DNA from: Escherichia phage WPEC5
Length of the DNA stretch: 64,000 bases
Sequence record: PV654397.1
Direction: 5' to 3' (one strand)
The position numbers and the translations under genes were made by a program. The notes under the pieces were generated by a model that saw only the letters and a list, made by a program, of their open reading frames with translations, had not been told where the DNA came from and did no database searches. This document shows, one piece after another, positions 39,110 to 44,289 of the stretch; positions within the stretch are counted from its first letter, which is position 1; every line of letters starts with the position of its first letter.

Positions 39110-39703
39110 TCAGTATTTCAAAATATCAAACTCTGGACTAACACTTGTTACATTATCACTAACAATTTTGAAAATAGACTCAACACGTTCATGTAACTGA
39201 ACATTGGTTTCTTCTTGAACTTCAATATACGCTGACATGGATGCAATTGCATGATAAGTCCCACTTCCGACAGCAGTAATTTGTGTTTTAGGTTGCAGTA
39301 CTGAAAAGTCTTCTTGAACTTCATAAATCGTATGATTATGAAGAATAATGAACTGACCACCACCAACATCTTGTGATGCATCACGAGCACCCCATTCATC
39401 TTTAAACATTTGACGAATGATAGGAATAACTTTCAGTACTAGATACTGTGAAAAGGTTTCCCCTGCAACTTGTTCTGGTAGAGTTAGGTTGTAATTCAAC
39501 AACTGTCCCATGCGGAACGAGGTAGTATACCCCAACGCCATTACTTCTTTAGTGCGAGAAAGACCATCCTCATTGAGTTTAATGAACTCTTTCTCAAACA
39601 CTTTAGGCTCAGTTTGAACTGCTTTAGTGAAACCATTGCTTCCTAATTTATCACCAGCGATGAAGGAAGATGTGCCATTTGTGTGAGCGATAATACAAGT
39701 CAT
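39110..39703 (-). CDS. HslV/proteasome-like Ntn-hydrolase peptidase
   Basis: Starts MTCIIA (Thr directly after Met); FIAGDKLGSNG and TAVGSGTYHAIASMSAY resemble HslV; ATGA overlap, AAGGAG SD. Confidence 0.5.
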   Translation of the reverse strand: MTCIIAHTNGTSSFIAGDKLGSNGFTKAVQTEPKVFEKEFIKLNEDGLSRTKEVMALGYTTSFRMGQLLNYNLTLPEQVAGETFSQYLVLKVIPIIRQMFKDEWGARDASQDVGGGQFIILHNHTIYEVQEDFSVLQPKTQITAVGSGTYHAIASMSAYIEVQEETNVQLHERVESIFKIVSDNVTSVSPEFDILKY

Positions 39704-39960
39704 GAAATAACTCCTTGTGCAAAAAGTGCCGTATACAACCAGTATATCAGCAACCCTAGTGTAAGTAAACATGCTCCATAAGAAATTGATAGAACATAGT
39801 AAATTCCTGCTTCGAACTTGGATGCAAATTTGTGTGTACTGGAATCCATAAAACCACGTTTGTAGTCTTTATAGATGAAACATGTTAAAACTAATGTAAT
39901 GCAATATACTATAGTTGTTGCATAAAAAACAAGAGATGTTAAGTTTTGTAAATTTGTCAT
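39700..39960 (-). CDS. membrane protein (86 aa)
   Basis: Two TM helices; coupled to HslV-like gene. Confidence 0.5.
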   Translation of the reverse strand: MTNLQNLTSLVFYATTIVYCITLVLTCFIYKDYKRGFMDSSTHKFASKFEAGIYYVLSISYGACLLTLGLLIYWLYTALFAQGVIS

Positions 39961-40052
39961 AGTTTATACACTCCTAGTGTATGTGAACTTATAACAAAGG
40001 ATGTACCACTTTATCATCCTCTTATTATAATATTATTATTTTGTATCTAATA

Positions 40053-40661
40053 CTAATGAATGATACTACCTAATTCGAGCAACTGATCTGGTGTAAGTCT
40101 CACAACTTCATTACCACGAACCTTACTAACCTCCACTAACAATTCTGGAGGAATACCATTCGCTGCATATAACGCAAATAGAACACCAACCTTAGTTGAT
40201 AGCTGTTCAGCAAAAATAGTCATTTGGCGAACTGATATGTATGTGTCATCACTATTTCGTGCTTTACTTTCGATTGACACATTATGTAGACCTAGAATTG
40301 AGTCCTTCATCATGTATCTGTTTTCTATATTAGCACTAAAGAATGCGATAGTGCAAGAAGAATTACAATATCTTTCAACAATAATTGTTAAATTGTTATC
40401 ATTGACAAAATTTCCTAGTGCCACTCCCGCATCAAAATCACCACCAGGTGACGTAATGATGATAGTGTCAAATGGGTGTGTTTCTCTAAAAACCATCAAA
40501 CGGTTTACAGTATTTTCAGTTAAAGTTGAAATGAACTGAACTGTCTGTTTAGATTCATCATATCTAATGATACTTTTTCTTTCAACACCTGCACTTGCAG
40601 GAAAGTTAATTAAGAAAATAATAATAATAGATTGGATGATTTCTTTACATAATCGTACCAC
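40053..40661 (-). CDS. secreted ClpP/crotonase-fold protein (putative serine peptidase)
   Basis: Signal-peptide-like N-terminus; ITSPGGDFDAG then NSSC and LHNVS resemble ClpP INSPGG / Ser / His; GTG start. Confidence 0.4.
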   Translation of the reverse strand: MVRLCKEIIQSIIIIFLINFPASAGVERKSIIRYDESKQTVQFISTLTENTVNRLMVFRETHPFDTIIITSPGGDFDAGVALGNFVNDNNLTIIVERYCNSSCTIAFFSANIENRYMMKDSILGLHNVSIESKARNSDDTYISVRQMTIFAEQLSTKVGVLFALYAANGIPPELLVEVSKVRGNEVVRLTPDQLLELGSIIH

Positions 40662-40701
40662 TGGTTAACCCTCTTAGTTGATTGTTGATTACATAAATAA
40701 T

Positions 40702-40728
40702 ATTATAGGAAGATTTAACTTAAGTCAA
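40702..40728 (-). promoter_or_regulatory. candidate sigma70-type promoter (TTGACT-N15-TATAAT)
   Basis: Hexamers on minus strand about 40 nt upstream of 40661 start; sequence-only. Confidence 0.3.
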
Positions 40729-40914
40729 ATTGTTTTTTATATCACTTCACAAATTCCCTCGCAGAATCACCCCGCCTTTTTACCTTCTTTGGAATGATTA
40801 TATCACACTAATGTATAATGTCTATGCTTTTGTCAACAAATAACGTGGTAGTACTGAACTCGTTGTTGGTTCTAAGAGTTTTCCTGAAATTCAAACAAGT
40901 TGTGTACTAACAAA

Positions 40915-40948
40915 AGAAAAAGGAGCCTTATGGCTCCTTTTTTTTATT
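40915..40948. terminator. intrinsic terminator, bidirectional
   Basis: Stem ggagcc/ggctcc, loop ttat, flanked by A-run and T-run. Confidence 0.55.
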
Positions 40949-41210
40949 CTACCGTATTAAGTTTCTGACAAATCATGTCAGCTTCAACACGGTCTTTATA
41001 ATAAATGGTAAAACCAAATTTACCAGTTACTTTATACTCTTTACAAGTTAAACAATTTACAATGTAGTACTTGTTGTTTTGTGCTGAAAATCGTACTTCA
41101 TGATTACGCATCACTGGTGGAGTAGTATTATCATTTAATACCATCATCACTAAAAGTACAAGAATCACAACTGCAAATGGAATACCTAAAATCAAGAAAG
41201 TCAAAGTCAC
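40944..41210 (-). CDS. small membrane protein (88 aa)
   Basis: N-terminal TM (LILGIPFAVVILVLLVMMVL). Confidence 0.5.
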   Translation of the reverse strand: MTLTFLILGIPFAVVILVLLVMMVLNDNTTPPVMRNHEVRFSAQNNKYYIVNCLTCKEYKVTGKFGFTIYYKDRVEADMICQKLNTVE

Positions 41211-42690: not shown

Positions 42691-42768
42691 CTACCCTATT
42701 AACAATTACACCTTGGGTATTTACCTCGTATGGATCAATTTTTGATCAATAATTTTTGATATGCAGCA

Positions 42769-42797
42769 AATAAAATGGGAATCATGAAAGATTCCCT
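42769..42797 (-). terminator. possible intrinsic terminator
   Basis: 7-bp stem gggaatc/gattccc then ATTTTATTT on minus strand. Confidence 0.35.
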
Positions 42798-42803
42798 AAG
42801 TAA

Positions 42804-43250
42804 TTATTTCTGGAATGGAGTGTACTGGTACTGCTCACAATCAGATACAGTTAGTACACCTTCATCATAACCGTACTGGAGAATAAGATCAAATGCTTTA
42901 TCAACCATAGCTACAACGTCTTTGTAACGAACGATGGTATGTGCCTGTTTCTCAACTGCTTTCATAATACCCATCAACATCCAGCGACCTTCATCAGTGT
43001 GAAGTTTAGCAAAACGAGGACGTTTAGTTGCTGCCATAATGTCAGTCCATTCTGCTTTAAACACTGATGGACGTTTAGGAATATCATACAGAGTTGTTGG
43101 GAATGTTACGTTGTTTTTCTTCATAGCTTCAGCTTGTGCAGCACGATAACCTTGACGGAATAGTGGGTGCTGTGATTTTAGCTGTTCATTGTTAAAAACT
43201 ACTTTGTTTTTAAACGCGGCAGAACCTTCTTTGTATTGTGCATTAGACAT
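42804..43250 (-). CDS. hypothetical protein (148 aa; internal start chosen)
   Basis: ATG at 43250 sits 1 nt from upstream stop; track start 43304 would overlap 53 nt. Confidence 0.45.
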   Translation of the reverse strand: MSNAQYKEGSAAFKNKVVFNNEQLKSQHPLFRQGYRAAQAEAMKKNNVTFPTTLYDIPKRPSVFKAEWTDIMAATKRPRFAKLHTDEGRWMLMGIMKAVEKQAHTIVRYKDVVAMVDKAFDLILQYGYDEGVLTVSDCEQYQYTPFQK

Positions 43251-43251
43251 A

Positions 43252-43581
43252 TTATTCTTTCCCCTCGTCAGTACTGATGAATTTTTTATCTGAGAATGTG
43301 CCATGTTCTTGACGCATAGCTTCTGCGTGTTGAACTGCGTTAATTGGATTAATGTTCTTTTTAATAAGAACTTCTTGCATTAGTTCGAGAACAATAGAAA
43401 AACCATTGAGTACTCGTTCTGCCTCGTCAACACCTTTCAATTCAATAGCCACTGCACTAATCTGATCTAATGCGGTATTAATAAACTCTGAATCATCTAA
43501 CACATCATTGACTTCAGTATTATTACGTACAAGAACTTTCATATAATCTCCAGAAATAAGATGCCCCAAATGAGGCATCAA
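43252..43581 (-). CDS. hypothetical protein (109 aa)
   Basis: Track ORF. Confidence 0.45.
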   Translation of the reverse strand: MMPHLGHLISGDYMKVLVRNNTEVNDVLDDSEFINTALDQISAVAIELKGVDEAERVLNGFSIVLELMQEVLIKKNINPINAVQHAEAMRQEHGTFSDKKFISTDEGKE

Positions 43582-43593
43582 ATGAAATTCAAA

Positions 43594-44289
43594 TTAGACC
43601 CACTCTTCCACGCCACCGCGACGTTTGACGAGATACTTACCTTCTTCGTTGCGTGGACCAAGGATGATACCATCAATGAAACCATGTTCACCGTATTCGA
43701 GTGCTTCTTCAGCGTTCAACCACAGGTCACGATCCGCATCTTTCAGTAGTTGTTCGTGTGATACACCAACTGCTTCAGCAATTTCTTTAGTCAGTAGTGT
43801 GTTCAATGCATCAGAGTGTTTCAAGGAAATCTTCTGATCAGTAATCAGACCCTGAGTACCGGAACTTACTTGGTGACACATGAAGTAAGAACGCTTCCCG
43901 CCTAGACGGAAACCTTTAGTACCAACTACTGATTGTGTATAGCAACCCATTGATGCTGCATAACCCATTACTACTGTACGGATAGGAGATACACAAGACT
44001 TAGCAATGTCAGCGATACCTAAACCTGCGTGTACTGAACCACCAGGAGAACTAATGTAGAAGGTAATTGGTTCAGAACCCTGAGAATCCAACCACACCAA
44101 TTGTTGCTTGATGATATGTGCCATTTGGTCATTGAAGTCAGTATCAAGGAAAATGATACGGTCTTGCATCATACGAGATGCTAGATCATAAGTACGTTCT
44201 GCACCATTAACTTTTTCAACTACATAAGGAATAGAAATGTCGCGAACTTCACCACCAGCATAACCACCAAAATTGAATTGTTCAACCAT
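43594..44289 (-). CDS. ClpP-like serine peptidase
   Basis: YISSPGG, GYAASMG (Ser) and MCHQVSSG (His) match ClpP catalytic elements; AGAGGA SD. Confidence 0.65.
   Translation of the reverse strand: MVEQFNFGGYAGGEVRDISIPYVVEKVNGAERTYDLASRMMQDRIIFLDTDFNDQMAHIIKQQLVWLDSQGSEPITFYISSPGGSVHAGLGIADIAKSCVSPIRTVVMGYAASMGCYTQSVVGTKGFRLGGKRSYFMCHQVSSGTQGLITDQKISLKHSDALNTLLTKEIAEAVGVSHEQLLKDADRDLWLNAEEALEYGEHGFIDGIILGPRNEEGKYLVKRRGGVEEWV

Follow-up and report, generated by a model that had tools for sequence, protein, structure and literature searches.

Three peptidase-like genes amid nucleotide-metabolism genes

Escherichia phage WPEC5 (sequence record PV654397.1) encodes three proteins resembling self-compartmentalising peptidases within about 5 kb of the 64,000-nucleotide stretch of its DNA that we analysed (hereafter the window): an HslV-like threonine peptidase (P1), a ClpP-fold protein with a predicted signal peptide (P2) and a ClpP (P3). 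All three open reading frames (ORFs) are present on the minus strand and are conserved genes (Table 1). The window belongs to the Caudoviricetes, genus Asteriusvirus, and derives from a Rak2-like jumbo myovirus; its G+C content is ~35%, and nearly every gene lies on the minus strand. A megablast search with positions 38800-44800 retrieved eight Escherichia jumbo phages with full query coverage and 98-99.7% identity, among them Ecwhy_1 (99.7%), fEgEco12, EC.P1 and vB_Ec-M-J, and matched the PBECO4/121Q/phAPEC6 group at ~80%. P1-P3 are already annotated in dozens of near-identical genomes. Their neighbours encode a PhoH-like protein, a Nudt16-like Nudix protein, Sir2, dCMP deaminase, a metallophosphoesterase and DNA ligase; head genes are not among them. 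The counterparts in Ecwhy_1 lie at 224-229 kb, likewise amid nucleotide-metabolism genes.

Table 1. Positions of the three peptidase-like genes, associated predicted signals and the ClpA-like gene of Ecwhy_1.
Feature	Coordinates	Strand	Length or sequence	Basis or position
P1, HslV/BPH-like Ntn threonine peptidase	39110..39703	-	197 aa	phrog_1040, homologue alignment, AlphaFold2, Foldseek
orf86, two hydrophobic segments	39700..39960	-	86 residues	ATGA-coupled to P1; annotated 121Q_474
P2, putative exported ClpP-fold Ser/His peptidase	40053..40661	-	202 aa, GTG start	marginal Pfam match, structure match, alignment
Predicted twin promoter	40797..40824	-	TAGACA-N13-TGTGATATAAT	upstream of P2
Strong terminator-like hairpin	40917..40942	-	11-bp stem	closes the upstream unit just ahead of the P2 promoter
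Intrinsic-terminator-like hairpin and T-run	43560..43579	-	8-bp stem, 5 GC	15 nt past the P3 stop
P3, phage ClpP	43594..44289	-	231 aa	Pfam CLP_protease, PDB ClpP similarity, triad mapping
Predicted sigma-70-type promoter, extended -10	44324..44351	-	TAGACA-N13-TGTGATATAAT	35 nt upstream of the P3 start codon
Ecwhy1_197, ClpA-like protein	Ecwhy_1 139559-141847 (outside the window)	opposite	762 aa	in the baseplate/tail-fibre module; domain search

P3, a divergent phage ClpP

P3 matched the Pfam CLP_protease family (PF00574) with an E-value of 1.3e-41 and 143 bits (cut-off 20.2) over profile positions 2-179 of 182. Among PDB entries, 109 ClpP sequences were found at E<=1e-3, and the solved bacterial ClpPs gave E-values of 1e-31 to 4e-36 and 35-42% identity over residues 20-208, the N-terminal axial-loop region included. 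The catalytic triad is Ser113/His139/Asp188 with canonical spacing, the oxyanion Gly and Met are kept, and the triad is conserved in the ClpP homologues of RaK2, GAP32, PA5oct and Atu_ph07. These three residues align with Ser97, His122 and Asp171 of E. coli ClpP, to which P3 is 37% identical; the PDB alignments agree on the AASMG, HQ and DRD motifs. The Pfam match and the triad bear out an initial annotation, made from the sequence alone, that had described P3 as a canonical-looking ClpP-like protease. Identity to the homologues of RaK2, GAP32, CBB and Munch is 66-74%.

P3 shares with bacterial ClpP (MEROPS S14) the fold, the Ser-His-Asp triad, the oxyanion Gly/Met and the axial-loop sequence, but differs from it in several respects. 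It scored well under the NCBIfam equivalog cut-offs (TIGR00493, 153 bits against 308.6; NF001368, 156 against 249), and by these scores P3 is a divergent member of the ClpP family and not an equivalog. It carries an N-terminal leader of ~19 residues and a C-terminal tail of ~20 residues (211-231, GPRNEEGKYLVKRRGGVEEWV; 43597..43659, minus strand). The tail is kept in the ClpPs of RaK2 and GAP32 and absent from those of E. coli, PA5oct and Atu_ph07, and it is specific to the enterobacterial Rak2-like phages. Since the ClpP C terminus lies near the ATPase-docking face, the tail could influence the choice of partner. The docking pocket has also diverged: three of the eight positions that we take to form the pocket differ non-conservatively from the presumed E. 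coli ClpP residues in enterobacterial Rak2-like ClpPs (Y60T, F82S and L114G). Among the papers searched, none characterises a ClpP encoded by a phage.

A phage ClpA-like protein as a candidate partner of P3

The near-identical phage Ecwhy_1 encodes a double-AAA+ protein of ClpA length, Ecwhy1_197, which adjoins a giant ORF of ~10 kb. Its first ring comprises AAA and AAA_lid_9 domains (D1) and its second AAA_2 and ClpB_D2-small domains (D2), and it retains intact Walker A and Walker B motifs and pore loops. Where ClpA has its IGL docking loop, Ecwhy1_197 reads R-S-I-G-M-S, and we counted this IGM tripeptide as a match to the (I/L/V)-G-(F/L) loop of a partner AAA+ protein. ClpB-type disaggregases are not known to have the D2 docking tripeptide loop. 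In the homologues, the insertion is retained with the loop IGV in RaK2, LGM in GAP32 and IGF in PA5oct and Atu_ph07. In all, five phages keep the Walker motifs and pore loops along with an [I/L]-G-[M/V/F] tripeptide at this position.

By tblastn, the ClpA-like protein and a P3-type ClpP occur together in Asteriusvirus, RaK2/KP13-7, GAP32, Munch/PHA46, Erwinia and Yersinia jumbo phages, PA5oct and Atu_ph07. That Rak2-like phages conserve ClpA was noted earlier (Atu_ph07 paper, 2018, PMC6102473). The phage pair resembles E. coli ClpAP in that it includes a ClpA-type double-AAA+ protein bearing a docking tripeptide where ClpA has IGL, and it differs from ClpAP in that the loop is IGM, IGV or LGM instead of IGL and in that clpP and the clpA-like gene do not form one operon. 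The pocket of the Atu_ph07 ClpP, whose ClpA-like partner has an IGF loop, is nearly canonical and the most so among the five sequences compared; the apparent co-variation of loop and pocket is a weak hint, as it comes from five sequences and a pocket list that we assumed. In PA5oct and Atu_ph07, the clpA-like gene adjoins a phage dnaJ.

P1, a threonine peptidase of the HslV/BPH group

The longest open frame of P1 reaches 39772, where the ATG has a poorly spaced GGAG. We prefer the ATG at 39703 as the start because it overlaps the stop codon of the upstream ORF (ATGA), follows an AAGGAG Shine-Dalgarno sequence at ~8 nt, is used by the GenBank coding sequence and yields the M-T-C start found in all 22 aligned homologues. 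P1 gave no Pfam hit, and it matched phrog_1040, annotated as 'peptidase HslV family', at 1.9e-23. An AlphaFold2 model built from the 22-sequence alignment reached a pLDDT of 91, and a Foldseek search of the PDB with this model returned HslV at the top (1.3e-10), followed by BPH (TM 0.74-0.79) and proteasome beta subunits. Thr1, Asp17 and Lys33 in mature numbering (M1-T2, D18 and K34 in the precursor) are invariant together with a G-S-G motif among the 22 homologues, down to 27% identity; the Asteriusvirus proteins have a hairpin of ~17 residues inserted after Lys33. An HslV-like Ntn-hydrolase with Thr directly after the initiator Met, as the initial annotation had read this gene, is what these data indicate.

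P1 is not an HslV orthologue, however. It scored 18.9 bits against the NF003964 cut-off of 137 and 18.1 against the TIGR03692 cut-off of 157.75, and only the C-terminal ~60 residues aligned. Profile searches had been proposed as a check on the three assignments; they recovered the Clp_protease family strongly for P3 and marginally for P2, and for P1 the Pfam search gave no hit. What P1 has in common with HslV and with the 'group I' that surrounds BPH and HslV, and includes the phage-associated proteasome homologues PPH, AAH and CPH (Fuchs, Alva and Lupas 2021, PMC8665760), are the Ntn alpha-beta-beta-alpha fold, Thr1/Asp17/Lys33 and GSG. As in group I, which is found in bacteria and phages only, there is no propeptide past the initiator Met and the subunit is compact (~180-197 residues). 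We also considered PPH, which has ~140 residues and lacks helix H2 (PMC8665760), and rejected this assignment, since P1 is larger, at 197 residues, and neither helix pair is missing from its model (H63-72 and H84-104; H149-166 and H170-184).

P1 also differs from HslV in having no adjacent or detectable hslU; the genes around it are Sir2, P2 and a small membrane ORF. Neither HslU nor ClpX was found in the Ecwhy_1 annotation at positions 1-50,000 and 75,001-241,885, where the only such ATPases listed are the ClpA-like protein and one AAA protein of MoxR type, and tblastn with the ClpA-like D2 domain, a query of limited sensitivity for HslU and ClpX, gave a single hit region in each Asteriusvirus genome at E<=1. 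We rejected Ecwhy1_216, an 'ATPase' of the same length as HslU, because it is a divergent AAA protein beside a DUF2201 metallopeptidase-vWA gene, i.e., a MoxR-type pair.

The P1 family extends over Asteriusvirus, many T5-like Epseptimavirus of Salmonella and E. coli, Vibrio and Aeromonas phages and Geobacillus phage E3. In EPS7, the homologue likewise sits among early nucleotide-metabolism genes. No conserved partner genes of the HslV-like family were found across phages and contigs, as the neighbours have no mutual sequence similarity: an unrelated membrane protein is encoded upstream in EPS7 and a homing-endonuclease-like gene adjoins the homologue in a Vibrio phage. Two uncultured contigs carry distant P1 homologues. 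In one, the gene directly upstream, between PhoH and dCMP deaminase, encodes a cytoplasmic ClpP-fold protein of 260 residues whose C-terminal tail is acidic and coiled. In the other, genes for an FtsH-like AAA-M41 protein and an Apyc1-like anti-Pycsar protein lie nearby.

P2, a predicted exported ClpP-fold protein

The Pfam CLP_protease match of P2 was marginal (20.6 bits; cut-off 20.2), and it was the only match above a cut-off when P2 and its bacterial relatives were searched against Pfam and NCBIfam. ClpP was the best structural match, which places P2 in the ClpP fold. Residues 1-24 read as a signal peptide by inspection, MVRLCKE / IIQSIIIIFLINF / P-A-S-A|G, with the basic n-region, hydrophobic h-region and small residues at -3/-1 of a Sec-type signal. 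The hydrophobic core spans residues 8-20 (maximal 15-residue Kyte-Doolittle mean of 2.23 at residues 12-26), and the structural model shows a lone helix over residues 2-23 followed by the ClpP core, so that a signal peptide is found at the N terminus and not the axial loops of a cytoplasmic ClpP. FPASA is invariant across eight homologues and PASA|G among those of Asteriusvirus, and the bacterial relatives have signal peptides or lipoboxes. The invariant PASA|G and the structural match uphold the earlier reading of P2 as a signal-peptide-bearing ClpP-fold protein, and periplasmic action is a reasonable inference from the conserved signal peptide.

The invariant residues of P2 are S71-x-G73-G74, C99-x-S101-x-C103 and H126 in 22 sequences, down to 20% identity. 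The spacing of 25 residues between S101 and H126 equals that between S97 and H122 of ClpP, and hhalign paired the two residues with the catalytic Ser and His of P3, although the P2-P3 similarity is weak (E 4e-4). Position 184 or 185 carries an acidic residue that is only loosely conserved. SppA and NfeD (MEROPS S49) are ClpP-fold proteins at or outside the cytoplasmic membrane, but P2 differs from them by its invariant Ser/His pair in place of a Ser/Lys dyad, by the invariant C-x-S-x-C around the nucleophile and by a single mature domain of 178 residues, and its family lies outside the curated Pfam and NCBIfam families. In species-representative genomes, we found 574 loci with the bacterial motif C-x-S-[SA]-C-A-N-Y-[IVL]-F, mostly in Gamma- and Betaproteobacteria (Kangiella, Alishewanella, Alteromonas, Shewanella, Pantoea and Erwinia); no conserved neighbourhood was found around them. 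Judged by these motifs, P2 belongs to an exported C-x-S-x-C/His ClpP-fold family that is not yet curated, and it is the least-described of the three proteins.

Between the window lineage and PBECO4, P2 is only 52% identical, against 88% for P1 and 96% (95.7%) for P3. This pattern fits a host-facing, envelope-exposed protein, or relaxed constraint outside the invariant active-site motifs. Three small, strongly hydrophobic ORFs (38887..39087, 39700..39960 and 40944..41210, all on the minus strand) flank P1 and P2. They are divergent like P2, with 51-65% identity to their PBECO4 counterparts; orf86, at 65%, is without annotation in the PBECO4 RefSeq record.

Predicted transcription units

The promoters and terminators in Table 1 are matches of consensus scans. 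The promoter-like site of P3 matches the consensus at 11 of 12 positions, with the TG of an extended -10 element, and the exact 11-mer TGTGATATAAT occurs within the 64 kb only upstream of P3 and of P2. P3 looks monocistronic, because it has its own promoter-like site and a terminator-like hairpin, beyond which, in the GenBank annotation, the next gene starts. No terminator was predicted between P2 and P1, where the gaps are 92 nt (P2-orf86) and -4 nt (orf86-P1), and P2, orf86 and P1 are probably on one transcript from the predicted twin promoter. Directly downstream of P1, at 37577..38877 on the minus strand, follow genes for Sir2 (PF02146, 1.3e-19) and a Nudt16-like Nudix protein (1.4e-18), spaced by gaps of 9-22 nt or overlaps of 4 nt. 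These may be on the P1 transcript, and the twin promoter possibly drives them as well; a NAD/ADP-ribose-related accessory pair is a possible description of the two. Because the promoter calls are consensus matches, early or middle expression by the host RNA polymerase is something that we infer. One-mismatch copies of TGTGATATAAT on the minus strand were found at seven positions (3103, 3168, 11339, 14741, 51981, 58895 and 63000), and these may mark other early promoters.

A separate protease for head maturation

Several database records call P3, and sometimes P2, a 'head maturation protease' (PBECO4 in RefSeq; fEgEco12 and vB_Ec-M-J in GenBank). The same automated, PHROG-derived label is found in Asteriusvirus, RaK2, GAP32 and Atu_ph07 records, and P3 does match phrog_94, 'head maturation protease', at 1.1e-43. 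That one or more of P1-P3 serve virion or prohead maturation, as PHROG-based pipelines label them, could also be argued from the assignment of the neighbouring gene 41637..42164 to a 'virion structural protein' PHROG, and from the ClpP peptides in virion preparations of CBB and PA5oct. P3, and faintly P2, share the ClpP fold with ClpP-related head-maturation proteases. However, P3 scores far better on cellular ClpP models (153-156 bits) than on the ClpP-related head-maturation model NF045542 (51 bits; cut-off 120), on which P2 reaches 15.5 bits. No scaffold or capsid gene is fused or adjacent to P1-P3, the predicted promoters are of an early type, and the genes lie in a nucleotide-metabolism and accessory region. 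The head module of Ecwhy_1, at 104-110 kb, encodes the major capsid protein, scaffold, a 206-residue 'capsid maturation protease' and portal; the 206-residue protein, between scaffold and portal, belongs to Peptidase_S77, the T4 gp21 family (PF03420, 8e-21). A head protease of its own and the nucleotide-metabolism neighbours sustain the earlier placement of P1-P3 outside a head-morphogenesis module.

Published virion proteomics, which had been suggested as a means to exclude a prohead role, agree in large part. The homologues of P1, P2 and P3 in phAPEC6 are gp345c, gp346c and gp353c. In the 62-protein list from phAPEC6 virion mass spectrometry, the S77 protease gp227c was detected and these three homologues are not listed. 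The RaK2 virions gave only gp092 and gp113 as 'unexpected' proteins (a prohead protease and an SSB); the S77 protease was detected and the P1-P3 homologues are not listed. The exceptions concern ClpP, which was seen in virion preparations of CBB and PA5oct. Such weak signals do not make ClpP morphogenetic, because jumbo-phage virion preparations often carry non-structural enzymes, e.g., PhoH, thymidylate synthase and SSB in phAPEC6. Iyer et al. (2021, PMC7824862) reached the same view on a prohead role from phyletic patterns, ClpP being patchy as expected of host-directed peptidases. We reject a head-maturation role of P1-P3, in view of the separate S77 gene and of the phAPEC6 and RaK2 virion lists, and consider it very improbable.

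A probable non-structural proteolysis toolkit

In our interpretation, to which we assign a rough probability of 0.55, P1-P3 form a non-structural phage toolkit for proteolysis and proteostasis that acts in two compartments, with P3 served by the phage ClpA-like unfoldase. Directly established are the folds, the catalytic residues, the gene starts and the promoter and terminator motifs, as well as the fact that the lineage has its own prohead protease and a ClpA-like protein, with its motifs, that co-occurs with ClpP. The three proteins would be made early or in mid infection, before the late genes. P3 would be a competent ClpP barrel fed by the ClpA-like double-ring AAA+ unfoldase, and the two would constitute the phage's own ATP-dependent ClpAP, degrading selected cytoplasmic host or phage proteins. 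P1 would be a cytoplasmic Thr1 peptidase from a phage branch of the HslV/BPH group, its nucleophile exposed by Met removal, which would either borrow host HslU or work ATPase-free like BPH. P2 would be exported by Sec, cleaved after Ala24 and then act in the periplasm as a ClpP-fold peptidase with Ser101 and His126. A phage-encoded ClpAP is favoured because of the docking loop, the co-occurrence, the hint from the pocket and the enterobacterial C-terminal tail. The same genome further encodes two Cpn10-like proteins, one of them marginal, a small DnaJ-type zinc-finger protein and the MoxR-like AAA protein with its DUF2201 metallopeptidase-vWA partner; these genes fit a broader phage proteostasis toolkit.

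Several observations weigh against this interpretation. The clpP and clpA-like genes are ~87 kb apart in different modules, and the link between their products draws on co-occurrence and motifs. Shuffled sequences contain at least as many promoter-like sites in total as the region does. For P2, hhalign sets the invariant Arg182 at the position of the catalytic Asp, beside a five-residue gap. Finally, ClpP was found in the virion preparation of CBB, by one peptide with 4.5% coverage, and the PA5oct ClpP record (EST35_0272) is noted 'ESI-MS/MS', i.e., seen in a virion preparation.

A bolder, joint reading of P2 and the Clp pair seems to us tentative at best, well short of an even chance. P2 would then be an undescribed class of ATPase-free periplasmic peptidase, and the ClpA-like protein and ClpP would share a private docking code. 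The putative peptidase would derive from ClpP, with C-x-S-x-C bracketing the nucleophile and probably forming a disulfide, and would cut envelope or periplasmic host proteins, e.g., for superinfection block, receptor remodelling or lysis timing. The fast divergence of P2, with 52% identity between sister groups against 88-96% for P1 and P3, would fit a host-facing function. The IGM loop, the diverged pocket and the C-terminal tail of P3 would insulate the phage pair from host ClpX and ClpA.

The use of host ClpX or ClpA by P3 is a live alternative to a phage-encoded ClpAP, if an unlikely one. P3 could employ the host unfoldases or mix with host ClpP, so redirecting or boosting host Clp, and the ClpA-like protein would be a separate chaperone or disaggregase. 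The canonical N-terminal loop region of P3 and its 37% identity to E. coli ClpP argue for this, as do the distance between the two phage genes and the chaperone context suggested by the phage dnaJ beside the clpA-like gene in PA5oct and Atu_ph07. On the other hand, the D2 helix-loop-helix of the ClpA-like protein keeps the [I/L]-G-[M/V/F] tripeptide, the two proteins co-occur clade-wide, and the three divergent pocket positions, although weak evidence, also speak against host partners. The initial annotation had proposed standalone proteases; for P3 this is unlikely, because a ClpA-like unfoldase with an IGM docking loop is encoded and co-occurs with ClpP.

It is rather improbable that P1-P3 have no joint function and are unrelated accessory neighbours by inherited synteny, or that an old ClpP duplication simply yielded P2. 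The arrangement is inherited synteny: the clpP gene and the P2 homologue are 4-5 kb apart also in RaK2/K64-1, EJP2 and XaC1, along with the rest of the block across the Rak2-like clade. P1 occurs with other neighbours and without P2 and P3 in T5-like, Vibrio and Aeromonas phages, and the weak P2-P3 similarity would suit a duplication. The near-identical predicted promoter of P2 and P3, otherwise absent from the window, and the apparent co-transcription of P2, orf86 and P1 nevertheless tie the genes together; an uncultured phage contig also has a ClpP-fold gene beside an HslV-like one, and a simple permutation gave ~0.006 for three of the five recognised peptidase genes falling inside ten consecutive genes.

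Least probable of all are catalytically irrelevant decoys sequestering host ClpX, ClpA or HslU, another suggestion of the initial annotation: with no phage HslU or ClpX detected, P1 would meet host HslU if it bound any ATPase, but a docking surface alone would suffice for a decoy, P2 could not meet cytoplasmic ATPases because of its predicted export, and the invariance of the catalytic residues in each of the three families (Thr1/Asp17/Lys33 in P1, Ser/His/Asp in P3 homologues and Ser/His in P2 relatives) speaks against decoys, none of these residues being absent from the alignments.

Our results sharpen existing knowledge and are not a discovery. A host-directed role for jumbo-phage ClpP was proposed in 2021 (PMC7824862), and earlier papers also describe phage proteasome homologues (2021) and note that Rak2-like phages conserve ClpA (2018). 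New are the explicit evidence that argues against labelling these proteins 'head maturation protease', a comparison of docking loop and pocket in the putative ClpA-like/ClpP pair, the twin predicted promoters that link the P3 and P2-P1 units, and the assignment of P2 to an exported family that lacks curation. The findings indicate that long-cycle jumbo phages bring along parts of the cellular protein-quality-control machinery. If our interpretation is correct, a phage-private ClpAP and a periplasmic ClpP-fold enzyme would offer a tractable E. coli system, which could show whether regulated proteolysis serves host takeover, anti-defence or phage proteostasis. To our knowledge, there is no known substrate for any phage-encoded ClpP, ClpA-like, HslV-like or exported ClpP-fold protease.

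Neighbouring genes

A PADLOC scan for defence and anti-defence genes gave no hits for P1, P2 or P3. For the 479-residue PhoH-like protein encoded at 35447..36886 (minus strand), PADLOC gave weak hits only, to helicase regions (Nhi and AbiO); its N-terminal extension appears PIN-like by eye (MKKYTIDTNVLL...). The homologue in phAPEC6, gp341c, is present in virions with 31% coverage. In the PBECO4-group phages, an additional plus-strand gene occupies the site corresponding to 40662..40943 and is missing from the window lineage, where this gap holds the predicted terminator and P2 promoter and nothing else. Virions of phAPEC6 contain its product, gp347 (14 kDa; 75% coverage). Outside the window, Ecwhy1_92 is labelled 'metallopeptidase' in GenBank, yet it matches the Pfam Rv2179c-like 3'-5' exoribonuclease family (4.5e-9), and the GenBank label is probably wrong.

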